DNA from: Clostridia bacterium
Lineage (GTDB): Bacteria; Bacillota; Clostridia; Oscillospirales; CAG-272
DNA length: 64,000 nt
Assembly: GCA_017453005.1 (NCBI GenBank)
Contig: JAFTKY010000038.1
Span: 4,086 to 68,085 of the forward strand
Direction of reading: 5' to 3'
The number at the start of each line of letters is the position of its first letter. Within the stretch, counting starts at the first letter, position 1. Below the pieces are notes generated by a model, which ran no database searches, was not told the origin of the DNA, and worked only from the letters and a program-made list of their open reading frames with translations. This document shows, in pieces, positions 5,058-52,530 of the stretch. The position numbers and the translations under genes are program-made.

Positions 5058-5070
5058 GTTGCATATTTAG

Positions 5071-5334: not shown

Positions 5335-5708
5335 ACCACATCCTCCTCGTAGATCATTTCACGGAGAATGATCTCCTCTGCTCGGTTGCGGATGCTGCTC
5401 ATAGCTCCAACCCATGCCATCTGATCGTGCTGCTTCATGCACTCTGTCGCGCCCTCAGTAGCTTTCATTTGCTCAGAGATAAGTTCAAGGCGGCGCTGTG
5501 CCTGTTCGTTCAGATCAGCCAGATACGTCCACAGTTTGCCGCTAAGGCACAGGTCGTTAAAACGGATGGGATTGTGCTCCTTGATATAATCTCTGTGCAT
5601 ACGCCCCCAACGACCAATAGGTCTGGCTTCCTCCGGTAAGCGAATATCGGGAATATAGTAATCACCACAACGGATATAGTTCAGTTCCTGCATCATATGT
5701 ACCTCCAC
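5331..5708 (-). CDS. tnpV: TnpV-family transposon-associated protein (125 aa)
   Basis: Pattern YYIPDIRLPEE...IGRWG..H..Y.KEH.P....L..SGKLW.YLADLNEQAQ...MKATEG.TE.MK..DQMAWVGAM..IRNRAEEI matches my recollection of TnpV proteins of Tn4451-like elements. Confidence 0.7.
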   Translation of the reverse strand: MEVHMMQELNYIRCGDYYIPDIRLPEEARPIGRWGRMHRDYIKEHNPIRFNDLCLSGKLWTYLADLNEQAQRRLELISEQMKATEGATECMKQHDQMAWVGAMSSIRNRAEEIILREMIYEEDVV

Positions 5709-5726
5709 AAAAGCGTTTTTACGGGT

Positions 5727-5766
5727 AAAAAAAGAAGCGATACCCGGTTATCAAACCAAGTATCGC
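5727..5766 (-). terminator. Rho-independent terminator (minus strand) just upstream of tnpV
   Basis: Minus strand reads GCGATAC-(16 nt)-GTATCGC followed by TTCTTTTTTT. It would insulate the island from read-through out of the protease gene. Confidence 0.6.
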
Positions 5767-5891
5767 TAACTTTTGTTTAGCCAACCCCGTCTGACAGATG
5801 CCGTAAAATAGTTAAATTTTGGTTTAACTGTTTTACGAGCACCCGCCATTGCTCGGAGGCTTTTACGTTAATCTGTGTTCAATTCTGTTGG

Positions 5892-8039: not shown

Positions 8040-8141
8040 GTTGATCCTCCTAAATTCTTGTGTAGGAATAAACTTTGTTTTGTGCTTTGATTATAGCACA
8101 ATTTTTTTTGCGGTGCAAGAGGATAAGCGAAATTTCGCATC

Positions 8142-8170
8142 AAAAAAGGGGCTGAAATTCAGCCCCTTTT
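8142..8170 (-). terminator. Bidirectional rho-independent terminator after the OB-repeat gene
   Basis: AAAAAA-GGGGCTGAA-A-TTCAGCCCC-TTTT. The same hairpin recurs at 10846-10872. Confidence 0.75.
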
Positions 8171-8183
8171 GAACTTTGAAATA

Positions 8184-12107: not shown

Positions 12108-12234
12108 TGTGCCTTTTTTCTCTTTTGATATGCCTTTTTCGTGTTAAACAAAATTTTCCTTGATTTTGTGTTTAAACGGACGCGTTCAAGTCAAAACTCA
12201 AAGTACAAACTCAAACGCGCAAAGGAAGATAAAA

Positions 12235-12714
12235 ATGATACCGAGCATCAAAAGAGGGGATATATTTTACGCCGACCTCAGCCCCGTTATAGGCTCTGAG
12301 CAGGGAGGACTTCGCCCTGTGCTTATAATTCAAAACGACGTGGGCAACAAGTACAGCCCAACGGTCATTGCCGCCGCAATTACATCAAAAACAGGCAAGG
12401 CAAAGCTGCCCACACATATTGACATATTCGCAGAGGGAACGGGACTTCTCAAGGATTCGGTCGTTTTGCTTGAACAGATAAGAACGCTTGATAAGCGACG
12501 TCTCAAGGAAAAGACGGGACGCCTGTCCCCCGCGAAAATGAACGAGGTGGACACCGCCATCGCAGTCAGTCTGAGCCTTTTGGGCGCAGGAGCGGCAAGC
12601 ACTGCATATACCGAAGCTCAAAAGGAGCTTTTGCCGAGCGCGGCGGCTCTTGCGGGTGAAAACCGCGCCGTGTCGGGCACAAATGCGGGCGCGGGACAAA
12701 ACAGAACAACGTAG
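12235..12714 (+). CDS. mazF: MazF/PemK (EndoA-like) toxin endoribonuclease with an unusual C-terminal extension of about 40 aa (159 aa)
   Basis: [52 protein letters not shown]...LPTHI...[17 protein letters not shown] is a near-canonical MazF/EndoA core. AAGGAAG RBS before the ATG at 12235. No upstream antitoxin ORF. Confidence 0.85.
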
Positions 12715-12915
12715 GAGTGCAGAGTGCAGAGTGCAGAGTTAAGAGTGCAGAGCGCAAAGTTGATTTGTAGGGGAGGGGCTGCAACATTTGGTTGCGGCGG
12801 AGGGGATTTGCTTGCAAATAATGGCTTGCTCCTCCCGTCAGTGCAGAGTGAAGAATTAAGAGTGCAGAGTTAAGAGTGCAGAGTTAAGAGTGCAGAGAGT
12901 GGAGTGCGGAGTGAA
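12715..12915 (+). repeat. Composite intergenic repeat: GTGCAGA-type heptamer array, family-B nested hairpin (12767-12836), second heptamer array
   Basis: Starts immediately after the mazF stop. Units include GTGCAGA, GTTAAGA, GCGCAAA and GTGCGGA. The central 70 bp is nearly identical to 34713-34772. Confidence 0.9.
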
Positions 12916-16906: not shown

Positions 16907-16932
16907 GCCTTCAAAAATGAATTTGTGTTTAT

Positions 16933-16991
16933 ATTATAGCATTTTTTGAAATGCGTGTCAATATTATAGCATTTTTTGAAATGCGTGTCAA
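16933..16991 (-). promoter_or_regulatory. Two perfect consensus sigma-A promoters in tandem (30-bp exact duplication) upstream of trkH
   Basis: On the minus strand each unit reads TTGACA-cgcatttcaaaaaatgc(17 nt)-TATAAT. The units 16931-16960 and 16961-16990 are identical. Confidence 0.75.
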
Positions 16992-17050
16992 TATCCCGAC
17001 AAATATGCAAAAGCCCCGGTAAAGACCGAGGCTTTGATTTTTGCTTTTTG

Positions 17051-18967: not shown

Positions 18968-19045
18968 TAGCCTTCCCCAAGGCAGGGAAAGGGGGACCGC
19001 GATAGCGGTGGATGAGGATGCACTGTTTATTATTGCATCACATCT
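18968..19045 (+). repeat. Family-A double-hairpin element (copy without heptamers) between serC and serA
   Basis: TAGCCTTCCCC-aaggca-GGGAAAGGGGGACCGC-gata-GCGGTGGATGAGGATGCAC... Confidence 0.85.
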
Positions 19046-20487: not shown

Positions 20488-21339
20488 ATGTCAGAAATCA
20501 GAATATGCGCGCCGTCAAGAATTTACGGCTCGTACAACGGCGGCAGATTTTCGGCTCGCGCGATGATAGAATATATGTCAAAAATAGGCTTTGACGGTGT
20601 GGATATCTCTCTGGAGAGCGTCGACGTCCTTGACGACAGCTACAAAAGCGTATATTACAGCGTAAAGACTGCGGCAAGGGCAAGGGGGCTTGAGATCCCA
20701 TCGTGTCACCTTCCGTATTATATGCCGGACCCGTCTGATAAGGTTCTCATGGAGGGCTTTTCAAAGCAGCTCAAAAAGGGAATTGACATCGCCGCACACA
20801 TAGAGATACCGCTCGCGGTCATTCACCCCATCGCTCTGCACGCAAAAAGCGTCACTGCAGAGGAGTGGGCGCGAAGAAATCTTGAATTTCTTGCACCGAT
20901 ATGTCAGCACGCGCGACAGAGAGGCGTGAAGCTTCTTATTGAGAACATGGCGAGTAATTGCGAGGGCGACGGTGACCACCTCTTTGGCAGTAACGCGACT
21001 GAGATTGCCGCGCTTGCGGACGCGCTCGGCGTCGGCTGCTGCTGGGATTTCGGACACGCAAATCTTTCGCACAGAGGCGAGGATGAGGTCAAGCTCCTCG
21101 GAGACAGACTAAGTCTTGTTCACGTGCATGACAATAACGGATATACGGACTCCCACCTGCCGCCCTTTGAGGGAAGCGTAAATTGGGAGTGTGCGATGAA
21201 GTCGCTGAAGGAAATGGGATACAGGGGCTATCTCAACATAGAAATGTCGGCGTGGGCACTGTCCCCCGACGAGTATATACGCGAGCAGTTCGGCAGAAAA
21301 ACGCTCTACCTCGGACAGAGGCTCGCGTCAATGATATAG
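20488..21339 (+). CDS. Sugar phosphate isomerase/epimerase family protein (xylose isomerase-like TIM barrel), 283 aa
   Basis: Pattern ...GFDGV..S........ ...HP.....ENM...... ...D.GH......HVHDN.G..D.HL.P..G..NW fits the AP_endonuc_2/TIM-barrel family. The stop TAG is the first 3 nt of a family-A repeat. Confidence 0.7.
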   Translation: MSEIRICAPSRIYGSYNGGRFSARAMIEYMSKIGFDGVDISLESVDVLDDSYKSVYYSVKTAARARGLEIPSCHLPYYMPDPSDKVLMEGFSKQLKKGIDIAAHIEIPLAVIHPIALHAKSVTAEEWARRNLEFLAPICQHARQRGVKLLIENMASNCEGDGDHLFGSNATEIAALADALGVGCCWDFGHANLSHRGEDEVKLLGDRLSLVHVHDNNGYTDSHLPPFEGSVNWECAMKSLKEMGYRGYLNIEMSAWALSPDEYIREQFGRKTLYLGQRLASMI

Positions 21340-21422
21340 CCTTCCCCTTGGGGGGGAAGGTGGCGCGACCTTGCGGTCGCGACGGATAAGGCGGTTGATG
21401 AGGCTGCCGAACTGCCTTATCT
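21337..21422 (+). repeat. Family-A double-hairpin element (variant stem 2)
   Basis: TAGCCTTCCCC-ttg-GGGGGGAAGGTGGCGCGACC-ttgc-GGTCGCGACGGATAAGG... Confidence 0.85.
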
Positions 21423-24522: not shown

Positions 24523-24567
24523 GTGCAGAGCAGACAAAGTGCAGAGTGCAGAGTGCAGAGTTAAGAC
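24523..24567 (+). repeat. GTGCAGA-type heptamer array immediately after the yicC stop
   Basis: GTGCAGAGCAGACAAAGTGCAGAGTGCAGAGTGCAGAGTTAAGA read directly. Confidence 0.85.
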
Positions 24568-27724: not shown

Positions 27725-27784
27725 AGTGCAGAGTGCAGAGCGGATAAAGTGCAGAGCGCAGAGTGAAGAGTGCTGAGTGCGGAA
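27725..27784 (+). repeat. Heptamer array immediately after the priA stop
   Basis: GTGCAGAGTGCAGAGCGGATAAAGTGCAGAGCGCAGAGTGAAGAGTGCTGAGTGCGGA. Confidence 0.85.
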
Positions 27785-29332: not shown

Positions 29333-30064
29333 ATGCTTTTCGGACTTTTTATGGGAGACTGGACTATTCTTATCCTTTTGCCCGCCATGATATTTGCAAT
29401 TATCGCGCAGGCAAGGGTGCAGTCCACCTTTAACAAATACAGTAAAACGAGGACATTTTCGGGGCTTGACGGCGCTTCCGTTGCCCGAATGATACTTGAC
29501 AAAAACGGGCTTTACAGCGTGAGAATTGAACGCGTTCACGGACACCTGACCGACCATTACGATCCGAGGGCTAACGTGATAAGGCTGTCGGACTCCACGT
29601 ATTCAAGTGACAGCGCGGCGGCAATAGGTGTTGCCGCTCACGAGGCGGGACACGCCGTTCAGCACGCCGTGGGATATTTTCCCATAAAGCTTCGTATGGC
29701 GATAATCCCCATCACGAGATTTGGCTCGGCTCTCGCTATGCCGCTGTTTCTTATCGGAATGCTTTTGACGGCGTTTTCGTATAACTCGGGAATAGGCGAA
29801 ATATTTATGCTGCTCGGTATACTGTTCTTTTCGTTCAGCACGCTGTTTCAGCTTGTGACTTTGCCGACGGAATTCAACGCCTCGTCAAGAGCGATGGAGG
29901 CTCTGAGGGGCTCGGGCAGACTTGGCTCGCAGGACCTTTCTGCCGCAAGGCAGGTGCTTTCTGCGGCGGCTATGACGTACGTCGCGGCGCTTGCAACCTC
30001 GCTTGCCTATTTGCTGCGATTCATTTTGATATTTATGGGCGCGTCGGGCAGACGGCGCAATTAA
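29333..30064 (+). CDS. Membrane zinc metallopeptidase (YugP-like, Zn_peptidase_2 family), 243 aa
   Basis: HEAGHAVQH zinc motif with N- and C-terminal TM segments. Confidence 0.8.
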   Translation: MLFGLFMGDWTILILLPAMIFAIIAQARVQSTFNKYSKTRTFSGLDGASVARMILDKNGLYSVRIERVHGHLTDHYDPRANVIRLSDSTYSSDSAAAIGVAAHEAGHAVQHAVGYFPIKLRMAIIPITRFGSALAMPLFLIGMLLTAFSYNSGIGEIFMLLGILFFSFSTLFQLVTLPTEFNASSRAMEALRGSGRLGSQDLSAARQVLSAAAMTYVAALATSLAYLLRFILIFMGASGRRRN

Positions 30065-30228: not shown

Positions 30229-31530
30229 GTGAGTCCGAGAAGGCTTGCGTTTGACGTGCTCAAAAAAATGAGCGCGGGCGGACAGTATTCAAATATTGCC
30301 ATTGACAAGGCGCTTGCGTCGGCAGAGCTGAGCGAGGCTGACCGTGGGCTTTTTACGGTGATAGTCATGGGCGTGCTGGAAAGAAAAATCACGCTGGACT
30401 ACGTCATAGACAGGCTCGCTGCCGACTCAAATAAAATTGAAAACGACGTAAGGATACTTTTGCGCATGGGCTTATATCAGCTCATGTTCCTTGACAGAGT
30501 TCCCGAGTATGCGGCGATAAACGAGACGGTAGGGCTTGCACCGAGACGGGTTAGGGGCTTTGTCAACGCGATGCTCCGCGCGTATTTAAGAAAAAAGGGG
30601 TGCATAGAGTATCCCGATAAGGATAAAAATGCGGCGGAGTATATCTCCGTAAAATACTCCTTTCCCATAGAGCTGACCGAAAGATTTATCTCGATTTTCG
30701 GTGAGGACAGAACCTGCAATATCTTTGATTTTTACAATCAGACGCCGCCCATGACCTTGCGCGTCAACACGCTCAAAACAAGCCGTAAGGATTACGCGGC
30801 GGAGCTTGACAGAGCAGGCATAAAATACGAGCTGACGGAAAATTCACCTAACGGAATAAAGGTGTACGGCGCGTCTTTTTCTCGCTTGCCGAAATCTGAC
30901 GAGGGATATTTTTTTGTTCAGGACGAGGCGTCGCAGATATGCGTTGAGGCACTTGGAGCGAGGTCGGGGAATTTTGTTATCGACTGCTGCTCGTGTCCCG
31001 GCTCAAAATCCTTCGGCGCGGCGATAAGCATGGAAAACACGGGCAAAATTTTGTCCTGCGACCTGCACGAGAGCAAGCTCTCGCTCGTTGAGTCGGGGGC
31101 AAAGAGACTTGGGATTGACATAATCACCACGCGCGCAACCGATGCGCGCAAATATGACGGGACGCTCTGCATGAGCGCGGATGCTTTGCTTTGTGACGCA
31201 CCCTGCTCGGGCTTTGGCGTTATGGCAAAAAAGCCCGAGATAAGATATAAGGACTTAACCGAATCGGACAAGCTTCCGAAAATTCAGTCGGACATTTTGG
31301 AAAACGTGTGTAAGTACGTAAAGGTCGGCGGTGCTTTGGTCTACTCCACGTGTACCGTTTTCCCCGAGGAAAACACTGCGGTTGTAAAGAGCTTTCTTAA
31401 CGCGCACCCCGAATTTGTCGCGGAGGATTTCAACGTGGGCAACCTTTCGTCCGAGTGCGGTATGCTGTCGCTTTTCCCCGATATTCACAAGACCGACGGA
31501 TTTTTCATCGCAAAAATGAGAAGAATATAG
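30229..31530 (+). CDS. rsmB: 16S rRNA (cytosine967-C5)-methyltransferase RsmB (433 aa)
   Basis: NusB-like N-domain plus a SAM-methyltransferase domain with DAPCSG and TCT motifs. GTG at 30229 (after AAGGAGAAGG) is preferred because the upstream ORF extension runs through the family-C repeat. Confidence 0.88.
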   Translation: MSPRRLAFDVLKKMSAGGQYSNIAIDKALASAELSEADRGLFTVIVMGVLERKITLDYVIDRLAADSNKIENDVRILLRMGLYQLMFLDRVPEYAAINETVGLAPRRVRGFVNAMLRAYLRKKGCIEYPDKDKNAAEYISVKYSFPIELTERFISIFGEDRTCNIFDFYNQTPPMTLRVNTLKTSRKDYAAELDRAGIKYELTENSPNGIKVYGASFSRLPKSDEGYFFVQDEASQICVEALGARSGNFVIDCCSCPGSKSFGAAISMENTGKILSCDLHESKLSLVESGAKRLGIDIITTRATDARKYDGTLCMSADALLCDAPCSGFGVMAKKPEIRYKDLTESDKLPKIQSDILENVCKYVKVGGALVYSTCTVFPEENTAVVKSFLNAHPEFVAEDFNVGNLSSECGMLSLFPDIHKTDGFFIAKMRRI

Positions 31531-31660
31531 ATAAAGTGCAGAGAGCAGAGTGCAGAGTTAGCCTTCCCCTGTGGGGAAGGGGGACCGCTTTAGCGGTGGA
31601 TGAGGAGAGCCCCATCTATGATTACAGCATGGTGCTTGCGGAGTGCAGAGTGCGGAATTA
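31531..31660 (+). repeat. Full composite element: heptamers, family-A double hairpin, conserved tail, heptamers
   Basis: ATAAAGTGCAGAGAGCAGAGTGCAGAGT-TAGCCTTCCCCtgtGGGGAAGGGGGACCGCtttaGCGGTGGATGAGGAGAGCCCCATCTATGATTACAGCATGGTGCTTGCGGAGTGCAGAGTGCGGA. Confidence 0.9.
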
Positions 31661-31712
31661 AAAATACGGAGGATTGCTCTCACCGTGAATGTAAAAACTA
31701 AAAGGACATAAC

Positions 31713-32759
31713 ATGAAAAATATATATTCATACACACCGGAGGAGCTTGAGGCTTTAATGATTGAGATTGGCGAGCCGAAATATCGCGCAAGCCAGATTT
31801 TCTCCCAGCTCCACAAGGGAATTTTGCTCTCGGAAATGACTAACGTGGGCAAAAAAACCAAGGAAAAGCTTTGCGGCGTAGTCGATGCCGCGCTCCCAAG
31901 CATAAAAAGGAAATTAGTCTCGCAGATAGATGGGACGGTCAAATATCTTTTTGAGCTTTCGGACAAAAACTGTATTGAGTCCGTAGTCATGAAATACGAG
32001 CACGGATACACCATTTGTGTATCCTCGCAGGTCGGCTGTCGCATGGGATGTAAATTCTGCGCGTCAACTCTCGCGGGCAGGGTCCGTGACCTTGAGGCAG
32101 GCGAGATGATAGGGCAGGTCCTTGCGGCAAACCGTGACCTCGGTATCCGCATTTCAAATATCGTCATGATGGGAATAGGCGAGCCGCTTGACAATTTTGA
32201 CAATTCGGTCAAGTTTTTAAGGCTTGCAAATCACGAAAGCGGCGTCAATATAGGTTATAGACATATATCTCTTTCCACCTGCGGCGTCGTGTCGGGAATA
32301 TACAAGCTCGCCGAGCTTGACCTCCCAATTACACTGTCCATATCTCTCCACGCGCCCGACGACGAGACGCGCTCGGAGATAATGCCCGTCAACCGTCGCT
32401 GGGGCGTCTCGGAGCTGCTTTGCGCGTGCCGTGACTATTACAAAAAAACGGGACGCAGGCTCTCGTTTGAATATACCCTTATTTCGGGCAAGAACGATTC
32501 AAGAGCACTCGCCGAAAAGCTCGCGCAGGTGCTCAATTCCTCCCTCCGCACAAAGACGGAGACCATGCCCATTCACGTAAATCTTATTCCCGTCAACGAG
32601 GTTGGAGAGACGGGATTTAAGCCCGCCGACAAACGCGGAATAAAAGATTTTGCCGCCACCCTTGAGATGCGCGGCATTCGCGCGACAGTTCGCCGCAAGC
32701 TCGGTTCGGACATAAACGCCTCCTGCGGACAGCTCAGGCGAGAGGACGCGGAGGGGTGA
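31713..32759 (+). CDS. rlmN: 23S rRNA (adenine2503-C2)-methyltransferase, radical SAM
   Basis: Radical-SAM cluster CRMGCKFC, YRA.QI..W N-terminal motif. 348 aa. Confidence 0.95.
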   Translation: MKNIYSYTPEELEALMIEIGEPKYRASQIFSQLHKGILLSEMTNVGKKTKEKLCGVVDAALPSIKRKLVSQIDGTVKYLFELSDKNCIESVVMKYEHGYTICVSSQVGCRMGCKFCASTLAGRVRDLEAGEMIGQVLAANRDLGIRISNIVMMGIGEPLDNFDNSVKFLRLANHESGVNIGYRHISLSTCGVVSGIYKLAELDLPITLSISLHAPDDETRSEIMPVNRRWGVSELLCACRDYYKKTGRRLSFEYTLISGKNDSRALAEKLAQVLNSSLRTKTETMPIHVNLIPVNEVGETGFKPADKRGIKDFAATLEMRGIRATVRRKLGSDINASCGQLRREDAEG

Positions 32760-32995
32760 AGACGCAGAGTGCGGAGTGCAGAGTGCAGAGCGCAGAGTGC
32801 AGAGTTAGCCTTCCCCTGTGGGGAAGGTGGCGCCGAAGGCGACGGATGAGGAGAGCCCCATCTATGATTACTGCATGGCGCTTGCGGAGTGCGGAGTGCA
32901 GAGCGCAGAGTGCAAAATAGCCTTCCCAAAGACAGGGGAAGGTGGATTTGCCGAAGGCAAGGACGGATGAGGATGCACCATTTTTGATTATTACG
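32760..32995 (+). repeat. Two tandem composite family-A elements with heptamer arrays, filling the rlmN-PASTA gap
   Basis: Copy a core at 32806-32880 (stem 2 CGCC/GGCG). Copy b core at 32918-32995 (stem 2 TTGCC/GGCAA). Heptamers at 32760-32805 and 32884-32915. Confidence 0.9.
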
Positions 32996-33025
32996 GCACG
33001 ATACATAAAATTTGTGAGGTGTATC

Positions 33026-33766
33026 ATGCAAAAAAACAGACGGGAAAATAAAGGTAAAATTTCAAGAAAGCTCATAATCGCCGCAGTTGTGACGACGGTG
33101 GCGTTTGCAATAACGAGTATTGCGGTATTCTACACGCTTTTTTACCGTAAAATTGACGCGTACGAGTACACGTTTCCCGATTTCGTGGGCTCGTATGAAG
33201 CCGACCTGCCAAGCTCGGACTTTGAAATAAAAAAGAATTACGTTCCGTCGGATATATATCCCGAGGGAGTTATCATTTCGCAGTCGCCCGACGGGCTTTC
33301 GGCAAAAAAGATAAAAAAAGGACAGTCTCCCGTTCTGACGCTCAATATAAGCTCAGGCAAGGAAAGCTTTGTCCTCCCAAATCTTACCGATATGTCTCTG
33401 CGCGAGGCAGAGACAGCTCTCCGACAGCTGCAGACAAAGGTGAAGGTCGTACGTATTTACGGAGACTTTGACGCGGAGAGGGTGAGCGAGACCAAGCCGC
33501 AAGCCGACAAAATAATCCACACGGGCGATACGGTGATTTTGTATGTTGAAACGCCGAAACGAATAGACAGGGTCAAGCTTCCGAGCGTTATAGGTCTTGA
33601 CGTGGACGAAGCGGCGCGCGTGTTCACCGAGGCAGGGCTTGAATTTGAAATCGAGGAAGGCTTTGATTTTGATAAAAATACGGGCGAGGTCATTTTTCAG
33701 TCACCCGTTCCAAACGCGTATATAAACAAAGAAACAAAAGTAACCATAACGGTAAACACAGATTAA
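33026..33766 (+). CDS. Membrane-anchored PASTA-domain protein without a kinase domain (246 aa)
   Basis: Short basic N-terminus, one TM (LIIAAVVTTVAFAITSIAVFYTLFY), then three PASTA-like repeats (e.g. VKLPSVIGLDVDEAARVFTEAGLEFEIEEG....GEVIFQSP). It occupies the prkC position of the ylo cluster. Confidence 0.8.
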   Translation: MQKNRRENKGKISRKLIIAAVVTTVAFAITSIAVFYTLFYRKIDAYEYTFPDFVGSYEADLPSSDFEIKKNYVPSDIYPEGVIISQSPDGLSAKKIKKGQSPVLTLNISSGKESFVLPNLTDMSLREAETALRQLQTKVKVVRIYGDFDAERVSETKPQADKIIHTGDTVILYVETPKRIDRVKLPSVIGLDVDEAARVFTEAGLEFEIEEGFDFDKNTGEVIFQSPVPNAYINKETKVTITVNTD

Positions 33767-34683: not shown

Positions 34684-34712
34684 TACGGGTACATATGCAG
34701 CCGTAGGGGAGG

Positions 34713-34772
34713 AGCTGCAACATTTGGTTGCAGCGGAGGGGATTTGCTTGCAAATAATGGCTTGCTCCTCCC
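34713..34772 (+). repeat. Family-B nested-hairpin element (copy 2)
   Basis: GTAGGGGAGGAGCTGCAACATTTGGTTGCAGCGGAGGGGATTTGCTTGCAAATAATGGCTTGCTCCTCCC. The outer stem GGGAGGAGC/GCTCCTCCC encloses GCTGCAAC/GTTGCAGC. Confidence 0.85.
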
Positions 34773-34800
34773 GCAAAATAATAAAACAAAGGTATAAAAA

Positions 34801-35594: not shown

Positions 35595-37646
35595 ATGAAG
35601 GATAACAGATTTCTTCCCGTGAGCTACGAGGAAATGAGAGAGCGTGGCTGGGATGCGCCCGATTTCGTTTACGTCAGCGGTGACGCGTACGTAGACCATC
35701 CCACTTTCGGTGCGGCAATAATTACGCGAGTGCTTGAGGCAAAGGGCTTTCGTGTAGCCATGCTCTCCCAGCCTGACTACAAGTCCTGCGAGGATTTCAA
35801 GCGGTTTGGAAGACCGAGGCTTGGATTTTTAGTCAGCGCGGGAAATATAGATTCCATGGTGGCGCACTATACCGCCGCCAAGAGAAAAAGAACTAATGAC
35901 TATTACTCCCCCGGCGGAAAGGCGGGTAACCGTCCCGACCGTGCGGTAATAGTATATTCAAACAGAATACGCGAGGCGTACGGAGACGTGCCGATAATAC
36001 TCGGCGGACTTGAAGCGTCGTTGCGCCGCTTTGCCCATTACGATTATTGGGACAACAAGGTGCGCCGCTCGGTGCTTGTCGACAGCCGTGCGGACATTCT
36101 CACCTACGGAATGGGGGAGAATATACTTATACGAATAGCCGAGCTGCTTGACAGAGGAGTGCCCGTCAAGAAGATACGGGACGTGCGCGGCACGGTCTAT
36201 CTCTGCTCGCCCGAGGATAAGGTCAACTTTCCCGTGGCGGCTACGTTCGACTATAATATATTAAAGGAAGACAAGCGCGAATATGCCCGTGCGTTTGGCG
36301 TGCAGTACAAAAATCAGGATTCCATAAACGGACAAGCTATATGCGAGACGTACGACAACAAGATGCTCGTCCAGAATCCTCCCATGCCCCCTCTTGAGCG
36401 AGAGGAGCTTGACTGGGTATACAACCTGCCGTACGCAAGGACGTATCACCCCATGTACGAAAAGGACGGCGGTGTCCCTGCGATAGAAGAGGTCAGATTT
36501 TCCATTACGCACAACCGCGGTTGCTTTGGCGCGTGCAATTTCTGCGCACTGGCGTTCCACCAGGGAAGGACCGTGCGCTCGCGCAGTATAGAGTCCTGCG
36601 TCCGTGAGGCGAAGCTTATCACCGAGATGCCCGATTTCAAGGGCTACATACACGACGTCGGCGGCCCGACGGCAAATTTCCGCTATCCGTCCTGCGACAA
36701 GCAGCTTGAAAGCGGCGTTTGCCCTTCGCGCAAGTGCCTTGCTCCCACGCCGTGTAAGAACTTAAAGGTCGACCACACGGAATATATACAACTAATAGAA
36801 GAGATTGAAAAGCTCCCGAGGGTGAAAAAGGTGTTTATCCGCTCGGGCATAAGATTTGACTACCTTATGTACGATAAGTCCGACGCGTTTTTCCGCAAGC
36901 TCGTGCGTGATAACGTATCGGGACAGCTAAAGGTCGCGCCAGAGCATTGCTCAAGCCCGGTGCTTCGCTGTATGGGCAAGCCTGACTTTAACGTGTACGA
37001 GAATTTCAGACGTAAGTATTTTCAGCTTTGCCGTGAGGCGGGTAAGGAGCAGTACCTCGTTCCTTATCTTATGTCAAGCCACCCGGGCTCGACTATGCAG
37101 GACGCGGTCAATCTCGCAGTTTGTCTCAAACGTGATAACTACGCGCCCGAGCAGGTGCAGGACTATTACCCCACGCCGGGCACGGCGTCGACCGTCATGT
37201 ACTATACGGGGATAAACCCGCTTGACATGAAAAAGGTGTACGTTGCAACGGACTATCACGAAAAGCAGCTCCAGCGCGCGCTTCTTCAGTTCAACCGTCC
37301 GCAGAACGCTCCCATGGTGCGCGAGGCACTTGTGGCGGCGGGCAGGGAGGACCTTATCGGAAACGGCAAGGACTGTCTCGTCCGTCCCGAGGGGCATGGC
37401 CACCCGTCGGGCAAGACCCTTTCGCAGGGCAGCTCCAAAAAGAGAGCGGGGAAAGACAGAGTTATCAACAGCGACAACCGCCGCGGAGCGCAGAAAAGCG
37501 GCAAGGCAAATTCCAAGTCCGGCGGCAAGAACGCGTCCCGTTTGGGCGGCGGAAGGGCAAAAAATACCCCTTCCACAAATTACCAAAGGAATAATTTTGG
37601 GGCATCCGGAGCAAAAAGTCCGGCAAAAAAAGGAAAAAGGTCATAA
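35595..37646 (+). CDS. ygiQ: YgiQ-family radical SAM protein with a basic low-complexity C-terminal tail (683 aa)
   Basis: N-terminus FLP.S.EEM..RGWD..DFV.V.GDAYVDHP.FG.AII.R.LE..G..V and the radical-SAM cluster CFGACNFC are YgiQ/UPF0313 features. The last ~90 aa are rich in Lys/Arg/Gly/Ser. Confidence 0.88.
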   Translation: MKDNRFLPVSYEEMRERGWDAPDFVYVSGDAYVDHPTFGAAIITRVLEAKGFRVAMLSQPDYKSCEDFKRFGRPRLGFLVSAGNIDSMVAHYTAAKRKRTNDYYSPGGKAGNRPDRAVIVYSNRIREAYGDVPIILGGLEASLRRFAHYDYWDNKVRRSVLVDSRADILTYGMGENILIRIAELLDRGVPVKKIRDVRGTVYLCSPEDKVNFPVAATFDYNILKEDKREYARAFGVQYKNQDSINGQAICETYDNKMLVQNPPMPPLEREELDWVYNLPYARTYHPMYEKDGGVPAIEEVRFSITHNRGCFGACNFCALAFHQGRTVRSRSIESCVREAKLITEMPDFKGYIHDVGGPTANFRYPSCDKQLESGVCPSRKCLAPTPCKNLKVDHTEYIQLIEEIEKLPRVKKVFIRSGIRFDYLMYDKSDAFFRKLVRDNVSGQLKVAPEHCSSPVLRCMGKPDFNVYENFRRKYFQLCREAGKEQYLVPYLMSSHPGSTMQDAVNLAVCLKRDNYAPEQVQDYYPTPGTASTVMYYTGINPLDMKKVYVATDYHEKQLQRALLQFNRPQNAPMVREALVAAGREDLIGNGKDCLVRPEGHGHPSGKTLSQGSSKKRAGKDRVINSDNRRGAQKSGKANSKSGGKNASRLGGGRAKNTPSTNYQRNNFGASGAKSPAKKGKRS

Positions 37647-40900: not shown

Positions 40901-42703
40901 ACAACCGACTCCAAGGATACAGTAGCAGCTCTCAGAGTAGATTATGACGCATGGGTTAAGGCTTGTGCAGATAACAATGTTGCTCAGAGCGAAGAGAACG
41001 GCACAGTTGTTGACGCAGCAGCTCTCGTAGCAGCTGAGGCTAAGCTTGATCAGATCAGAAATCTTGGTATGGATATCGCAACCGGTATCGCTGACCTCAG
41101 AGTTCCCGAGCTCGGCACAGATCCCGCAACTCCTTACTTCGCAGATGCGGCTGCTCAGGAAGCATACGCAGCAGAGGTTGAAGCAATCGTTGAAAAGCTC
41201 GCTGAGTACGAGGAGCTTAACGACGGTTACAGAGGAAACTTCTCCGAAGATCTTCTTAAGAAGGTTGCTGACTGCCAGCTCTACGCTGATAAGTACACAG
41301 CACTTGTGAAGCTTAACAACGCATACGTAGCAATAGACGCTCAGGCAACTGACGCAACAGTTAAGGCAGAGCTTGCAAACTACCTTAACAATACAAGAGC
41401 AACTGTTGACGCTATTGACAGCGCAACAGCAAATGCAGCTGCAGTTATCGGATTCTACGGTAACCAGGCAGAGGCAGATATGCTTGAAATCGCAAATAAT
41501 GCAGGGGACCCCGGTTCGGGGTCCTCTGGCGTTACTACGGAGGCTCCCACGGCAGCTCCTACAGAGGCCCCCACAGCAGCGCCCACAGAGGAACCTACGG
41601 CAGCTCCTACAGAAGCTCCCACGGCAGCTCCTACAGAGGCTCCCACAGAGGAACCCACAGAGGCTCCGTTAGCTCCTGTAGAAACAACTATTGATTTCTC
41701 TACAACAGATCAGCGTAAGTCTCTGGCGACAGAACAGCAGATATGGGTGAATGGTGATATAACCTTTACACATCTTAAGGCTGAATCAACCACTAATATC
41801 GCTGATTATAGCAATCCCATTCGTTTGTATAAGAGCTCGAGCATTACTATTTCTGCATACGGTACCATTACTAAAATAGTATTTAACGTGGCAGACTCCA
41901 ATTATAATACAATTGAAGCCTCTATAGGAACAGTTTCCGGTGCTACTGTTACAGTCGATGGATTGACAATAACTGTGGAATTTGCTGAGGGAGTCGGATC
42001 CTTTACAATCGACGCACTTACTGCACAGAACCGTTTGAATTCTATCGTAGTAACATACGTACCCGCGTGTGCGCACGCTAACAAAACCACCACTACAGTA
42101 GAGGCGGATTGCACAACCGCAGGTTCTATTACAGTAACCTGTGACGATTGCGGAAACACCGTATCCGAGACAAAGCTTGAAGCACTCGGACACACGGGTG
42201 GTGAAGCAACCTGCGAGGAAAAGGCAGTTTGCACGGTTTGTGGTGAAAGCTATGGTAGCTTGGCTGCTCACAGCTACGTTGCTGGTATTTGCTCCGTTTG
42301 CGGCAAGGAAGAATCCACTGTTACCGTTGTAAATTACGTTCTTAAGGCGACCGCATCCAACGGAACTGCATATTATTGGGACGGTACCGCATCGGGCGGA
42401 ACGGGTGCTATGACCACTGATGCCGCAAGTGCTGCTGTTCTTACTATGGAAACAGTAGACGGTGGTGTTTACGTATATTACACCGATGCTACAGGCGCAA
42501 AGCAGTATATCACTATTGGAACAGCCAATAAGGGATTTGGTGTCAGCACAACAGCAACTGTGCTCAATTATAACTCTGAAAACGGCTATGTATATGCAAA
42601 CGACCGTTACATTGCAAGCTACGGCGTTCAGGATATCCGCACATATAAGGAATCCGCCGTCACCGGCACCAATATGTACTTCGTTATGACAGTTGTTGAA
42701 TAA
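37910..42703 (+). CDS. Giant alanine-rich alpha-helical cell-surface lipoprotein with PT-linker, Cys-rich modules and C-terminal beta-rich domains (1597 aa)
   Basis: Signal peptide plus lipobox (LALAFCMTGC). About 1200 aa of A/E/D/L-rich helical sequence, then a linker (TTEAPTAAPTEAPTAAPTEEPTAAPTEAPTAAPTEAPTEEPTEAP). C...G.....C..CG modules shared with the protease at 5892-8039. Two terminator hairpins follow. The TTG at 37898 in the ORF track overlaps the RBS, so the ATG at 37910 is preferred. Confidence 0.85.
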   Translation: MNRNFIKISVSIVALLLALAFCMTGCKVDDVAADIGTAKDEIAANKADAAKALEEATKALEEKIAANETDCAAEIAAVNAAIAEAQKASDASDAALETAIADAKAALNTAIKAVQADLEAAKTALSDKIAANTAELNEEIAALVAALENIELAYQAADLELAVAVSTYIDECYATLEAAIAVVAGDVDALTEYVEDAVEALEADIAAGNKNLLDSIAAVNNAITLAQAKAETADAALKEALEQAIADASKAIVEAVDVIKEDLQSKIDTLNESVSTIDNTVSVTIAGQIKDINDAIDAINADTTLADAIDAVEADIEALYTTIATYQQTTEEVVKAWHEIYTTYQLWEQVNVSYGDMYVLDAEGNKVPVDVAAEYASAQVRLYRALNLEEVNTVKAAFFAVIRNVKSDTLDMLNAIYANLVAAEEGLAAEAIDLKAVRTSLDAADLSNYAEAKLIVDGKVVDLHVMSNNLWTEYNKVRVAVVEDYLEAGNLEAARAGILDLVADGEDASELIADYNAKRVAIVETLIADLDAALGAAESLEALEEAAKGAQAVGDAYTALENDTDIAVEITDLENLEAKMAVVEENYVLHRIKFAKAGIEAAVVVDDLADDKAILDGITATTATIEAKLEEAYAAYYSKYVLIHAADLTADMNAYIDNLAAIYADYNDADNDAIGAIRADYVAFVDNRDLAEAFRVNAENDVLKALAEAEVKFVAVENQLLALEALVPAGEAVAAILGNEEFDEITGTKSEFTVLKDYKTQAAAWVVELDALYADFTDNEANKAAYDEIRTIVDEAGYNTINTLFEAEIADLMDAADAVTNAISTLEAAVADGIKLTTVEDVEAAQAAVNTWIGLATDPDGVAFILEWRSNGELTHEMLIKTVNARDTQYKAYLKTAQDAWTACYTAEYQALTVDNIKYDETALTAVREWFTTYGVITAAYAAEHGLTGIGTDVEEANLAALEAQLVIEIAERQALVADLASQAAALQGRIDALGNVTTDSKDTVAALRVDYDAWVKACADNNVAQSEENGTVVDAAALVAAEAKLDQIRNLGMDIATGIADLRVPELGTDPATPYFADAAAQEAYAAEVEAIVEKLAEYEELNDGYRGNFSEDLLKKVADCQLYADKYTALVKLNNAYVAIDAQATDATVKAELANYLNNTRATVDAIDSATANAAAVIGFYGNQAEADMLEIANNAGDPGSGSSGVTTEAPTAAPTEAPTAAPTEEPTAAPTEAPTAAPTEAPTEEPTEAPLAPVETTIDFSTTDQRKSLATEQQIWVNGDITFTHLKAESTTNIADYSNPIRLYKSSSITISAYGTITKIVFNVADSNYNTIEASIGTVSGATVTVDGLTITVEFAEGVGSFTIDALTAQNRLNSIVVTYVPACAHANKTTTTVEADCTTAGSITVTCDDCGNTVSETKLEALGHTGGEATCEEKAVCTVCGESYGSLAAHSYVAGICSVCGKEESTVTVVNYVLKATASNGTAYYWDGTASGGTGAMTTDAASAAVLTMETVDGGVYVYYTDATGAKQYITIGTANKGFGVSTTATVLNYNSENGYVYANDRYIASYGVQDIRTYKESAVTGTNMYFVMTVVE

Positions 42704-42737
42704 TTTGATAGCTTAACTATAATAGAAATTATAAAAA

Positions 42738-42766
42738 CCGCACCCCTCGGGGTGCGGTTTTCTTTT
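42738..42766 (+). terminator. Rho-independent terminator of the giant gene
   Basis: CCGCACCC-ctcg-GGGTGCGG followed by TTTTCTTTT. Confidence 0.8.
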
Positions 42767-42778
42767 CACCAAAAGGAA

Positions 42779-42815
42779 GGGGAGCTTTTCTGAAGCTCCC
42801 CATCTTTTTTCTTTT
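42779..42815. terminator. Second, bidirectional hairpin between convergent genes
   Basis: GGGGAGCTT-ttctg-AAGCTCCCC followed by ATCTTTTTTCTTTTT. Confidence 0.7.
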
Positions 42816-44788: not shown

Positions 44789-44976
44789 TAGCCTTCCCCT
44801 TGAGGGGAAGGCTAACTCTGCACTCTGCACTCTTCAAGCGCCATGCAGTAATCATGTATGGGGCTCTCCTCATCCACCGCTAAAGCGGTCCCCCTTCCCC
44901 ACAGGGGAAGGCTAACTCTGCACTCCTAACTCTGCACTCTGCACTTTATCCGCTCTGCACTTTATCCGCTCTGCAC
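44789..44976 (-). repeat. Composite family-A element with heptamer arrays, in minus orientation (follows the proA stop)
   Basis: The reverse complement reads: proA stop, (GTGCAGAGCGGATAAA)x2, heptamers, TAGCCTTCCCCtgtGGGGAAGGGGGACCGCtttaGCGGTGGATGAGGAGAGCCCCATACATGATTACTGCATGGCGCTTGAAGAGTGCAGAGTGCAGAGT, then TAGCCTTCCCCtcaaGGGGAAGGCTA. Confidence 0.9.
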
Positions 44977-49958: not shown

Positions 49959-50026
49959 TAGCCTTCCCCTGTGGGGAAGGGGGACCGCTTTAGCGGTGGA
50001 TGAGGAGAGCCCCCTCTATGATGACC
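49959..50026 (+). repeat. Family-A double-hairpin element abutting the DUF559 stop (left arm of an inverted pair)
   Basis: TAGCCTTCCCCtgtGGGGAAGGGGGACCGCtttaGCGGTGGATGAGGAGAGCCCCCTCTATGATGACC. Confidence 0.9.
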
Positions 50027-50398
50027 TCACGTGTTGATATCACTCGGCTCTATCCTCAAATGCTTTAGTATATCCTCACAGACTGTATTAAATCTGCAAT
50101 TTATATCCTTGTTTGTGTACCTCAAAACTGTTATTCCTAAAAGTGTCAAGTCCCTGTCTCGTTCTATATCCGCTTGTCTGTGTTCGGGCTCTCCGTGTTG
50201 TGATCCGTCTATTTCTATAACAACCTGTCTGCCGGAAATGTAAAAGTCAACTATATAGTTACCTATATTCTTTTGTCTGTTTACCGTCAGTGGAAGCTTT
50301 TTCAGAAAATCATACCAAAGATGTTTTTCCTCGGGGGTCATTCCTTTTCGCAACAGTTGAGCGTTATGGACAAGGGATTTGTTGTAGTTGTATTTCAT
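50027..50398 (-). CDS. DUF559 / Vsr-like endonuclease-domain protein (123 aa)
   Basis: LRK.MT.EEK.LW..L......RQ..IG.YIVDFY......VIE.DG.QH......D..RD..L...G..VLR fits the DUF559 (restriction-endonuclease-like fold) pattern. Neither the ATG at 50398 nor the GTG at 50452 has a clear SD. Confidence 0.75.
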   Translation of the reverse strand: MKYNYNKSLVHNAQLLRKGMTPEEKHLWYDFLKKLPLTVNRQKNIGNYIVDFYISGRQVVIEIDGSQHGEPEHRQADIERDRDLTLLGITVLRYTNKDINCRFNTVCEDILKHLRIEPSDINT

Positions 50399-50432
50399 GG
50401 TTTTGTAATCAGTATATTTTTTGTAATCGGAT

Positions 50433-50520
50433 GTGGGGCTCTCCTCATCCACCGCAAGCGGTCCCCCTTCCCCGCAGGGGAAGGCTAACTCTGCACTCTA
50501 CATTCTTAACTCTGCACTGC
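50433..50520 (-). repeat. Family-A element plus heptamers in minus orientation (right arm of the inverted pair; also the 3' flank of folC)
   Basis: The reverse complement reads ...GCAGTGCAGAGTTAAGAATGTAGAGTGCAGAGT-TAGCCTTCCCCtgcGGGGAAGGGGGACCGCttGCGGTGGATGAGGAGAGCCCCAC. The folC stop TAA (50506-50508) lies inside the heptamer array. Confidence 0.9.
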
Positions 50521-52341
50521 ATCATATACCTCGCAGTACATATAAAGCGAGCCGAGACATATTACGGGCATGTTTTTCTCAAGTGCTGTGCGTCTTGCAA
50601 GATTTATGGCATCAGATACACTCTCGCAGGCGTGAGCCTCTACTCCAAGGCTCTCAAACACCGCCGCAAATTCACCTGCGGGCAGGGCTCTCGGATTGTC
50701 GGGCGTGACGGTGAATGCCATGCCGCCCACCTCGCTCATTCTTTGCGCCATGTAGGAATAATCCTTGTCCGCCATAACGCCTGTGACGAGAATTACCTTT
50801 TGCTCGGGGAAATAAAGCTTTACGCTTTCCACTGCCGCGTCAATTCCCTCGGGGTTGTGACCGCCGTCGGAGATTATTGTGGGGCTGTCGCACAGCCTCT
50901 CAAATCTTGCGTGCCAGACGACAGAGGACAAGCCATTATATATTGCTTCATTTGAAATGTCAAGTCCAAGACCCCGAAGAATGTCAACAGCCGTCAAGAC
51001 GTTGCAGGCGTTGTGCGGCTGGTATGAGCCGAGCAGGGGAATCTTTACGTTTTTATATGCTCCAAAGTCAAATTCCGAGCCGTCAAGACTTGTGCTTTTG
51101 AGCAGAAAAGAGCTTCTGTCTACCTCAAAATATTGAGATGCACACTCGTCTGCCTTTTCTTTTATGACCTTTGCCGCCTCCGCGTTGTCCGAACAGAACA
51201 GCACGGGTTGGGTTTTCTTTATTATCCCTGCCTTTTCACGTGCGATGTCGGGTATTGTGTTGCCGAGAAAAGCCGTGTGGTCAAAGGAAATGCCCGTAAT
51301 GACCGACAAAAGCGGGTCTTTTATGACGTTGGTAGAGTCAAGTCTGCCGCCCATACCGCATTCAAGCACGACGATATCACAGCCCTCGCGTGCAAAATAC
51401 TCAAATGCTATCGCGGTTATAAGCTCAAACTCGGTGGGGGCGTCCTCCATAGAGTCCGCAAGGGGCTTGACGTATTCCGTAATTTTTGCAAGGTCATCGT
51501 CGGGAATATCAACGCCGTTTATCTTCATGCGCTCGTTAAACCGAAGAACGAAGGGGGACGTATAAAGCCCGACCTTGTAGCCCGCGTGCTGCAAAATATT
51601 CGCCGTCATGGAGCAGAACGAGCCCTTGCCGTTAGTTCCCGCAACGTGAATGAACTTGAGCTTGTTTTGTGGGTTGCCCATCTTCTCAAGCAACTCCACC
51701 GTGCGCTCAAGTCCGGGGCGGGAGCCCTTCCAGCACACCGAATGAATGTATTCAAGCGCGCCCTCGTACGTCATTTTTTTGCGGTCGTCGCGCGTAGCCC
51801 TTTTCGGTATCATATTATCGATTTCCTTTACAAAAGCTGAATTTTTCATAAGAAGATAAATTATAACGCACTCAGCCGCGCCGACGAGAATATACGTCAG
51901 AAGTCTCCACAGTCCCGTCTCAATAAGCGGCAGCCCGTAAAACAGCCATAGCCCGACGGTCTTGATTATTACCGAGCCGAAAATGTGAGCGAGGGACACC
52001 GATAAAACAATGCTGAAACCGCTTTTCCTTTTAAACAAAAGGGAAACAAGACCTGATACAAGACCTATTACTCCCGCGCCGACGGTAATTATCGGGTTTA
52101 TTGCGTAGCCTACCATTATGCTTCCAAGCAGGTCTGCAACAACGCCCACAGCCGCTCCGACGATGGGCCCGAAGAATATACCCGACATGATTACGGGCAG
52201 ATTTTCAAAGCTTATGCGTATAGCGGGCGTGACGTTAAAGGCAAGATATTTGCCAAGAACGATGCTCATAGCCGCGAGAATAGACGCGCACGCCATGACC
52301 TTAAGACTGCCGAAAAGAAGCTTGCTTTTTGTTTTTTTCAT
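50506..52341 (-). CDS. folC: Fusion protein: folate-family ECF transporter S component (FolT, N-terminal ~175 aa) plus folylpolyglutamate synthase/dihydrofolate synthase (FolC), 611 aa
   Basis: N-terminal TM domain (IRISFENLPVIMSGIFFGPIVGAAVGVVADLLGS...). It continues in-frame, with no stop and no internal RBS, into MTYEGALEYIHS...HVAGTNGKGS (Mur-ligase P-loop). GGAGG RBS before the ATG at 52341. The ORF-track start at 52524 reads through the riboswitch. Confidence 0.8.
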   Translation of the reverse strand: MKKTKSKLLFGSLKVMACASILAAMSIVLGKYLAFNVTPAIRISFENLPVIMSGIFFGPIVGAAVGVVADLLGSIMVGYAINPIITVGAGVIGLVSGLVSLLFKRKSGFSIVLSVSLAHIFGSVIIKTVGLWLFYGLPLIETGLWRLLTYILVGAAECVIIYLLMKNSAFVKEIDNMIPKRATRDDRKKMTYEGALEYIHSVCWKGSRPGLERTVELLEKMGNPQNKLKFIHVAGTNGKGSFCSMTANILQHAGYKVGLYTSPFVLRFNERMKINGVDIPDDDLAKITEYVKPLADSMEDAPTEFELITAIAFEYFAREGCDIVVLECGMGGRLDSTNVIKDPLLSVITGISFDHTAFLGNTIPDIAREKAGIIKKTQPVLFCSDNAEAAKVIKEKADECASQYFEVDRSSFLLKSTSLDGSEFDFGAYKNVKIPLLGSYQPHNACNVLTAVDILRGLGLDISNEAIYNGLSSVVWHARFERLCDSPTIISDGGHNPEGIDAAVESVKLYFPEQKVILVTGVMADKDYSYMAQRMSEVGGMAFTVTPDNPRALPAGEFAAVFESLGVEAHACESVSDAINLARRTALEKNMPVICLGSLYMYCEVYDAVQS

Positions 52342-52403
52342 AAAAAATACCTCCTCTCGCCATAGGCAGAAAGAAGGTAAAATATGCCTTTTTTGAGCCG
52401 TAT

Positions 52404-52504
52404 GAAGCGGGATGCAAGACCGAGACCGCATTGGAAATTTCCAAAATTCGTCCGCAGGACAACTCCCCGTCCCTGCGGCACTACCGCCTCGAGCTTTACT
52501 CTTC
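52404..52504 (-). promoter_or_regulatory. THF (tetrahydrofolate) class I riboswitch
   Basis: Minus strand GAAGAGUAAAGCUCGAGGCGGUAGUGCCGCAGGGACGGGGAGUUGUCCUGCGGACGAAUUUUGGAAAUUUCCAAUGCGGUCUCGGUCUUGCAUCCCGCUUC. It shares the GAGAGUA...GGGA.G...ACGAA...GCGG...UUGCAUCCGCU(C)C framework and helices of the Eubacterium siraeum folT THF aptamer as I recall it. Confidence 0.82.
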
Positions 52505-52530
52505 AAATTTCGTGGTTTTTCCACAAGACC

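Follow-up and report, generated by a model that had tools for sequence, protein, structure and literature searches.

The window analysed here, a 64,000-nt stretch of the Clostridia bacterium contig JAFTKY010000038.1, carries short repeats in the spacers between its genes, among them yicC, priA, rsmB, rlmN, rsgA and thiN. An initial annotation, made from the sequence alone, had described one modular element, with its exemplar 3′ of rsmB (31531-31660). Its modular and repeated nature stands: we found eight full copies of a double-hairpin unit, here called the arm, one copy reduced to the palindrome of hairpin 1, and 11 arrays of GTGCAGA-type heptamers, with period-7 arrays at every locus named before (Tandem Repeats Finder). 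These numbers are far above chance (TAGCCTTCCC occurs 10 times in the 64 kb versus 0.03 expected, and GAGTGCAGAG, allowing at most one mismatch, 48 times versus 3.1). Two things had been overlooked. The composite consists of two separate repeat classes, heptamer arrays and arms, and the DUF559 gene at 50027-50398, bracketed by two arms, is the specific partner gene of the arm family.

A covariance model of the arm, trained on ten unrelated copies, detected the eight arms with E-values of 2.5e-15 to 1e-4, six on the plus strand (starting at 18968, 21337, 31559, 32806, 32918 and 49959) and two on the minus strand (44867-44914 and 50442-50487). Together with a further repeat, family B, the features are as follows.

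12715-12761, plus strand: GTGCAGA-type heptamer array, starting at +1 after the stop of a PemK/MazF-like gene (12160-12714)
12762-12839, plus strand: family-B core, copy 1 of 2, with purine blocks, pyrimidine complement and two inner hairpins
12840-12915, plus strand: heptamer array after the family-B core, GTGCAGA alternating with GTTAAGA
18968-19020, plus strand: degenerate arm, antisense to both minus-strand neighbours (covariance model, E 1.4e-4)
21337-21420, plus strand: arm (21337-21391) and extension stem GGATAAGGC/GCCTTATC; the TAG at 21337-21339 is the AP_endonuc_2 stop
24523-24567, plus strand: heptamer-only array at +1 after the yicC stop
27725-27784, plus strand: heptamer-only array at +1 after the priA stop
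31531-31558, plus strand: ATAAA leader and heptamers, 3′ of the rsmB stop
31559-31606, plus strand: exemplar arm, with hairpin 1 CCTTCCCC/GGGGAAGG, hairpin 2 ACCGC/GCGGT, then GGATGAGG; DNA fold z -4.3
31607-31660, plus strand: lineage-specific tail (AGAGCCCCATCTATGATTAC...) and short distal heptamer array of the exemplar locus
32760-32995, plus strand: heptamers (32760-32805), arm (32806-32852), tail, heptamers (32883-32917), arm (32918-32972) and tail remnant, in the rlmN-to-PASTA gap
34700-34775, plus strand: family-B core, copy 2, inserted in the rsgA/thiN spacer
44789-44812, no strand assigned: hairpin-1-only perfect palindrome TAGCCTTCCCC-TTGA-GGGGAAGGCTA (sequence and covariance model)
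44813-44976, minus strand: composite of heptamers (44915-44976), arm (44867-44914), tail and heptamers (44813-44836); the first array starts at +1 after the aldehyde-dehydrogenase stop
49959-50026, plus strand: right arm of the DUF559 cassette (arm 49959-50006 and tail), reaching to the DUF559 stop codon
50027-50398, minus strand: DUF559 gene, 123 aa, Vsr-like PD-(D/E)xK endonuclease (Pfam PF04480, E 3.4e-25)
50399-50487, minus strand: left arm of the DUF559 cassette (50442-50487) and tail, forming the DUF559 5′ leader
50488-50520, minus strand: heptamer array containing the stop of the ECF-S/FolC fusion gene (50506-50508), from the sequence

A weak model match at 20154 (E 0.64) was not counted as an arm, and another at 42734 is false: the stretch 42734-42810, 3′ of a 1601-aa open reading frame (ORF), holds a pair of terminator-like hairpins, set back to back and each with a T-run. 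Rfam holds no family for the arms in gathering or permissive scans (best match in 31400-33100, E 2.8). The sole window match passing the gathering scan is a THF riboswitch (RF01831, 69.5 bits, 52403-52505, minus strand), directly 5′ of the 672-aa ORF at 50506-52524, which encodes an ECF transporter S component fused to a FolC-type Mur ligase. As had been claimed for folC, the stop of this fusion gene falls inside its array, within a GTTAAGA unit.

The arm is about 50 nt long and consists of a pyrimidine strand (CCTTCCCC), its purine partner (GGGGAAGG), a second hairpin of free sequence and a second purine block (GGATGAGG). Loop 1 measures 3-7 nt, and hairpin 2 spans 12-30 nt with a stem of 2-10 bp. 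Across 115 distinct hairpin-2 segments, we counted 607 Watson-Crick, 17 G.T and 1 A.C pairs, and the loops are mostly GNA or GNNA. For covariation, 139 distinct arms were taken from loci chosen by protein only. Here 97.6% of cells pair versus 81.9% in shuffles, and double-sided changes number 318 versus 96.5, the alignment having been fitted to the model so that these counts are biased towards structure. Slid controls reach 44-63% pairing, and two hairpin-1 pairs also covary. The covariation of hairpin 2 first noticed among the window copies is thus borne out across the family. G.T pairs exceed A.C pairs also in a further count (14:4), which means that one particular strand folds. Pairing in the hairpins is under selection on a single strand, whichever way the genes run. 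Window arms fold stably as DNA (z -4 to -6). In the window copies neither of the two hairpins is followed by a T-run, which rules out intrinsic terminators, in agreement with the initial annotation. At loci of other genomes an A-run often lies 5′ of hairpin 1, so that a terminator would be possible only on the opposite strand.

A further property of the arm had been missed: the GGATGAGG block would suit hairpin 1 as its third strand, in the manner of the BoxC/PIT repeats of E. coli. Laid antiparallel on GGGGAAGG, it gives valid triads at 7/8 positions. Among 136 distinct arms, triads are valid at 6/8 positions in 41, 7/8 in 78 and 8/8 in 16, with at least 7/8 in 94 of them. The third block's first base varies together with the outer pair of hairpin 1 (G with C-G in ~85, T with G-C in 51, 2 exceptions), and GGATGTGG is found only together with GGAGAAG. 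This triple covariation of hairpin 1 and the third block is no more than suggestive of triads. Family B, known from its two near-identical window copies and absent from all other loci searched, may be another triplex-type module, judging from its blocks: GGGGAGGAGC, GGAGGGG and GCTCCTCCC are set apart by two small hairpins, and GGAGGGG, read antiparallel, fits GGGGAGG at 7/7 positions. Its presence in the rsgA/thiN gap had been described correctly.

We then looked at the gene between the arms. The window's only DUF559 gene (50398..50027) sits between the inverted arms 50487-50442 and 49959-50006 and matches Pfam PF04480 at 88.5 bits (cut-off 20.6). Residues D51, E62, D64, Q67 and H68 are invariant in 11 homologues, and the DUF559 profile matches the solved structures 3hrl at 1.7e-22 and 3r3p, the I-Bth0305I catalytic domain, at 1.4e-5. 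DUF559 has been placed in one PD-(D/E)xK clade with Vsr (PMC3424549). PADLOC and PHROGs return only weak, partial matches for it. The usual layout in other genomes is an arm, GGATGAGGTG serving as ribosome-binding site, the coding sequence from ATG to stop, CACCTCATC and an arm; the ribosome-binding site of DUF559 lies within the GGATGAGGTG block of the arm. At 80 loci picked by DUF559 protein similarity alone, arms number 5.6-6.8 per kb in the nearest 100 nt on the gene's flanks, 2.6-3.1 per kb at 100-200 nt and 0-0.3 per kb past 400 nt. Arms are ~20-50-fold enriched within 100 nt of DUF559 genes. Conversely, when 844 ORFs from 120 arm-anchored loci were clustered, DUF559 formed the largest cross-genome family and was alone among the families recurring in at least three loci in having every member within 100 nt of an arm. 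No recurrent transposase was found among these 844 neighbouring ORFs, a result obtained with no dedicated Y1_Tnp scan of whole genomes. The arms are specific flanks of DUF559 genes. They also extend reading frames falsely, as the initial annotation had warned: gene calls for DUF559 homologues reach 152-165 aa, since the arm is read as part of the ORF.

The arms form a very large family that extends through Clostridia, other phyla and viral contigs. Scanning one genome per species for the arm pattern gave at least 120 loci, a first set ascertained by the exact hairpin-1 pattern, in which related sequences are not independent and genes outside the window are crude ORF calls. Among the matches listed, most come from Clostridia and Selenomonadaceae, and some from long contigs of Planctomycetes, Chloroflexia and Oxalobacter. 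Arms also occur on at least 120 viral contigs. In 131 arms of other genomes, orientation shows no bias with respect to the neighbouring ORFs (38 run with both, 37 against both, 32 lie between convergent and 24 between divergent genes). Arms normally come in doublets. Adjacent arms mostly face inward, in 99 pairs with a bimodal gap, either ~43-49 nt or ~350-450 nt, the larger class enclosing the DUF559 gene. Outward-facing neighbours lie 2-31 nt apart, which produces alternating clusters (for example at locus L135). The doublets are heterotypic, joining an A arm (GCC...GGT ... GGATGAGG) to a B arm (GGC...GCT GTC..GAC TGATGAGG), and carry terminal repeats AAAGSC...GSCTTT. The arms form REPIN/BIME-like doublets. 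The arm is also among the commonest short sequences in gut and rumen communities: in public read sets, assembler depth is 500-9400 over the arm core (31559-31607) versus 5-10 over the genes on either side, with contigs breaking at this point.

Five syntenic relatives (84-95% RlmN identity), reached through RlmN homologues, show what the spacers look like when empty.

rsmB/rlmN spacer: relatives 9-25 nt, window 182 nt
yicC/remA spacer: relative L205 13 nt, window 65 nt
priA/def spacer: relative L205 13 nt, window 98 nt
rlmN/PASTA spacer: relative L205 29 nt, window 260 nt
rsgA/thiN spacer: relatives 1-15 nt, window 117 nt
AP-endonuclease/cysS spacer: 4-12 nt in three of the four relatives covering it and 103 nt in L207, window 140 nt

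The repeats are insertions into tiny operon spacers. The empty spacers (1-29 nt) hold scarcely more than the ribosome-binding site of the next gene, and yicC, priA, rsmB, rlmN and rsgA have kept their native C-termini and stops. Only the AP_endonuc_2 gene is shortened: its last two codons are gone compared with the relatives, and it uses the TAG of the arm. A base-by-base check confirmed that this TAG, from TAGCC, is the stop of the gene starting at 20488. Arrays had been said to begin on the nucleotide after the stop codon of six genes; this holds for the MazF-like gene, yicC, priA, rlmN and the aldehyde-dehydrogenase (proA-like) gene but not for rsmB, where TAG is followed first by ATAAA. 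Since the ancestral spacers measured 1-29 nt and the rest is coding sequence or ribosome-binding site, the position right after the stop is the sole site where an insertion is tolerated, and the proposed targeting of stop-proximal sequence, or any sensing of the stop codon, need not be invoked. Insertion may favour TAA(A)G-like sites, on the basis of two junctions; a possible TAA(A)G duplication is seen at two array junctions only. At strain level only array-length variants were seen, since the contigs of public read sets break at the repeats. The comparison also shows that a Zn_peptidase_2 gene between fmt and rsmB (29333-30064) is present in the window and L207 and absent from L203-L205, and that a small ORF of ~30 aa (MKIVLVRAP...SPILR..FKI.KEK.KK; ~35653-35745) in the spacer between thiN and a radical-SAM (DUF3362) gene is kept in L203-L205.

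The GTGCAGA arrays are a genome-specific heptanucleotide simple repeat, which is a known kind. Overrepresentation of heptameric repeats in bacteria has been described (PMC4692102; for TAACTGA repeats, PMC4679880). Among the short tandem repeats of all genomes compared, period-7 arrays predominate, and each genome has its own unit, for example CCTAGTC, AATGATG or TAGATGG. Three relatives carry orthologous GTGCAGA arrays of 2-12 units. At the yicC junction the copy number differs in L203, L204 and L207 and the array is missing in L205; at the priA/def junction L203 has an inverted arm inside the heptamer array; and the sister strain X15 carries 23 additional nt in the array of the exemplar (31531-31558). 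We rejected the heptamers as a functional part of the arms: period-7 arrays are ~5 times denser near arms than in all DNA, which is about the level expected by chance for two intergenic features. Many of the genome-specific units (loci L001-L207) contain a stop triplet, TAG, TAA or TGA, and a stop-containing heptamer in 7-nt register places stops in all three frames within three units. The main window unit, GTGCAGA, has no stop triplet; only the variants GTTAAGA and GGATAAA have one. Other tandem repeats in the window are a perfect intergenic 30-nt duplication (two copies of ATATTATAGCATTTTTTGAAATGCGTGTCA, 16931-16994) and in-frame repeats of 24-nt period at 7897-8589, 10370-10561 and 41535-41667, within ORFs of 715, 836 and 1601 aa that are probably repetitive surface proteins.

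E. coli offers a case in which repeats and gene can be compared between genomes. Under the names BoxC, PIT and TMECO, a purine-motif intrastrand-triplex repeat is known from E. coli and other Proteobacteria; it is intergenic and without strand bias, comes in types A and B, and its inverted pairs are always A+B (PMC4666352). As single-stranded DNA, TMECO forms the triplex in vitro, reportedly not in RNA; no associated mobile element was found (PMC4666352). The E. coli DUF559 gene is ycjD. Just 5′ of it lies a perfect 17-bp inverted repeat (TCACCTCATTCTGACAA/TTGTCAGAATGAGGTGA; locus L208, E. coli K-12, 4258-4302), a hairpin over the AATGAGGTGA ribosome-binding site that would sequester this site. 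The ycjD coding sequence terminates in ACCCTCTCCCTGA, and a BoxC copy, CCCTCGCCCC-TCT-GGGGAGAGGG-TTA-GGGTGAGGGG, lies ~165 nt 3′ of the gene (median 19 per genome). In an evenly spaced sample of 60 complete genomes, the 37 with ycjD have 11-25 other BoxC places (median 17), versus 1-15 (median 3) in the 23 without it (Mann-Whitney, p = 4e-10, not corrected for phylogeny). Of the genomes lacking ycjD, UTI89 and Nissle have 2 such places and O157 has 12. The gene lies between fabI and sapF, exactly where other phylogroups have eefRABCD, with at least two inferred replacements (PMC12817139). Our literature search found no paper linking DUF559 or ycjD to BoxC and none on the arm sequence strings; the BoxC/TMECO paper does not mention such a link (PMC4666352).

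Overall, we favour, with moderate confidence, the explanation that the window holds selfish DNA-level repeats of two classes, the arms being a REPIN-like system partnered with DUF559. The arm would fold on one DNA strand while this is single-stranded, for instance during replication or repair. As a possible third strand, GGATGAGG would run antiparallel along hairpin 1's purine strand, with hairpin 2 taking the place of the 3-nt loop 2 of TMECO and holding its ends together. The DUF559 nuclease may recognise or nick the folded arm and so lead to the copying of arms and doublets, in a REPIN-RAYT- or homing-like way; solo arms, including those in the window, would be non-autonomous remnants. Copies landed in operon spacers of 1-29 nt, in which any position other than that right after the stop would ruin a coding sequence or the ribosome-binding site of the next gene. 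Heptamer arrays would grow and shrink through replication slippage. Any host function in 3′ untranslated regions is secondary at most. The REP/MITE-like mobile unit listed among the candidate roles in the initial annotation pointed in the right direction, given the empty sites in syntenic relatives, the inverted doublets and the clusters.

Several observations weigh against this explanation. The action of the DUF559 nuclease on the arms is something we infer, and to our knowledge DUF559 is not a known transposase. The gene is absent from 120 viral contigs bearing 282 arms and occurs in several other gene/arm layouts as well. Since the two arms of a cassette are usually unlike, both in type and in hairpin 2, we reject the idea that the hairpin-2 sequence is specifically recognised. 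No consistent target-site duplication is found at the ends of ~90 doublets. The triple covariation of hairpin 1 and third block consists essentially of two haplotypes, A and B, and may reflect subfamily history rather than triads. In E. coli, the BoxC contrast follows phylogroups, and the arm covariance model matches a BoxC copy only weakly (8.8 bits, E 0.055), which leaves common descent unproven. Holder et al. saw no TMECO triplex in duplex DNA or in vivo (PMC4666352). Finally, the explanation does not account for one heptamer being seeded at many junctions.

An alternative that we regard as rather improbable makes DUF559 a free-standing homing endonuclease aimed at the centre of pre-existing arm doublets, where it copies itself by recombination while the arms spread otherwise or by recombination alone. 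In its favour are the fit of the DUF559 profile to the I-Bth0305I catalytic domain (3r3p, 1.4e-5) and the two doublet sizes, which differ by exactly the gene (~45-nt versus ~380-nt spacer). Many arms without the gene, including those on viral contigs, and the repeated replacement of eefRABCD by ycjD at one site point the same way. However, homing into doublets does not account for the contrast in BoxC number between E. coli genomes with and without ycjD, nor for the several other gene/arm layouts, and no second mobiliser appears among the 844 neighbouring ORFs.

It is unlikely that the element acts at the RNA level for its host operons, with post-stop hairpins that guard the upstream mRNA against 3′ exonucleases, make ribosomes pause at termination or bind a protein, and heptamers that serve as RNA-protein binding sites. 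REP sequences near stop codons in E. coli are reported to have effects on mRNA stability and translation, and the window hairpins are stable (z -4 to -6). The rule that orientation follows the upstream gene holds for 6/8 window arms and for all seven array loci; it fails for the 18968 arm, which is antisense to both neighbours, and across the family. This sense bias in the window comes largely from one co-directional gene cluster. A role at gene ends would also suit the 11 of 44 heptamer arrays in unrelated genomes that adjoin a stop codon (crude ORF calls) and the arm sequence in one metatranscriptome assembly, a sole match that is uninformative on transcript ends. But the 131 arms of other genomes are randomly oriented although pairing is selected on one strand, and arms are equally frequent in convergent and divergent spacers and occur on viral contigs. 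Random orientation combined with a strand-specific fold makes a 3′ untranslated region stabiliser or RNase barrier, as first proposed, unlikely as the selected function. PIT/BoxC elements show neither promoter nor terminator activity, and purine-motif triads do not form in RNA (PMC4666352). Least probable, and very unlikely in our judgement, is a cis-regulatory structure of the DUF559 mRNA, in which GGATGAGGTG/CACCTCATCC pairing sequesters the ribosome-binding site, hairpin 1 with a T-run terminates transcription and dispersed copies are decayed cassette relics: the ribosome-binding site inside the arm in many cassettes, the perfect 17-bp hairpin over that of ycjD and the T-run after hairpin 1, 3′ of the gene, at some loci agree with it, but arms far outnumber DUF559 genes (eight arms to one gene in the window, 282 to none on viral contigs), the ~45-nt doublet size peak is tighter than random decay would leave, and arms form alternating clusters (L135).

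Returning to selfish repeats partnered with DUF559, one can extend the proposal beyond Clostridia. Throughout bacteria, triplex-forming repeats of the BoxC/PIT/TMECO type might have DUF559 endonucleases as their missing partner, forming a second REPIN-RAYT-like system in which a Vsr-like PD-(D/E)xK nuclease recognises folded single-stranded DNA (hairpin plus third strand). We put this forward tentatively, as a possibility that is more doubtful than true. If correct, it would explain how E. coli BoxC arose, a question unanswered since the 1990s, and give a role to a large domain-of-unknown-function family. For decades, BoxC/PIT/TMECO repeats and intergenic heptamer arrays have lacked both a mechanism and a partner gene, and DUF559, a very large family, has had no role assigned. 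The present results provide a concrete hypothesis that joins the three and is testable in E. coli via ycjD. They rest on an arm-DUF559 association that is tight across hundreds of uncultured Clostridia, on the REPIN-like layout and on the contrast in BoxC number between E. coli genomes with and without ycjD. The arms also matter in practice, being abundant enough to break gut and rumen metagenome assemblies and causing false ORF extensions (SPSPxGEG-type tails), so that a family model would better annotation.

The heptamer arrays resemble cyanobacterial STRR, the Xanthomonas GGGAATC repeats (PMC4692102) and the Beggiatoa TAACTGA repeats (PMC4679880) in having tandem 7-nt units at many intergenic sites, one dominant unit per genome and a copy number that is polymorphic among relatives. 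They differ in the unit, GTGCAGA, in their position at +1 after stops within operons and in being physically joined to arms; the Beggiatoa repeats lie mostly just 5′ of start codons. DUF559, for its part, has the fold and the ExDGxQH-type motif in common with Vsr and the EDxHD homing endonuclease I-Bth0305I (3r3p), and groups with both in a single PD-(D/E)xK clade. Unlike these, it is a stand-alone protein of 120 aa, outside any intron or intein and with no adjoining cytosine methylase here.

Among repeat systems, REP/BIME and REPIN-RAYT share with the arms short extragenic hairpin repeats, an inverted doublet with a short spacer, alternating clusters, a partner gene between inverted repeats, the lack of target-site duplication and fewer repeats in genomes without the partner gene (ycjD in E. 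coli). In contrast to RAYT, the partner is a PD-(D/E)xK Vsr-like nuclease and not a Y1 HUH transposase, and unlike REP the arms have no GTAG-type head and show a purine/pyrimidine mirror design. BoxC/PIT/TMECO comes close in structure: the block order (pyrimidine, loop, complementary purine, second purine) and the antiparallel G.G-C, A.A-T and T.A-T triads are those of the arms, and the third blocks are similar (GGGTGAGGG in E. coli, GGATGAGG in the arms). Like BoxC, the arms carry the triplex blocks, are intergenic, multicopy and without strand bias, occur in two types and form A+B inverted pairs; local instability accompanies both, and neither has a known transposase. However, loop 2 of the arm is a covarying hairpin of 12-30 nt versus 3 nt in TMECO, the hosts are mainly Clostridia, and the blocks CCTTCCCC, GGGGAAGG and GGATGAGG differ from the TMECO consensus CCCTCNCCC-N3-6-GGGNGAGGG-N3-GGGNGAGGG. 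The ITxF search for such triplexes allowed loops of 1-6 nt (PMC4666352) and would therefore miss the arms. With their long loop 2 and their departure from the consensus, the arms are thus a variant, rather than a member, of TMECO.

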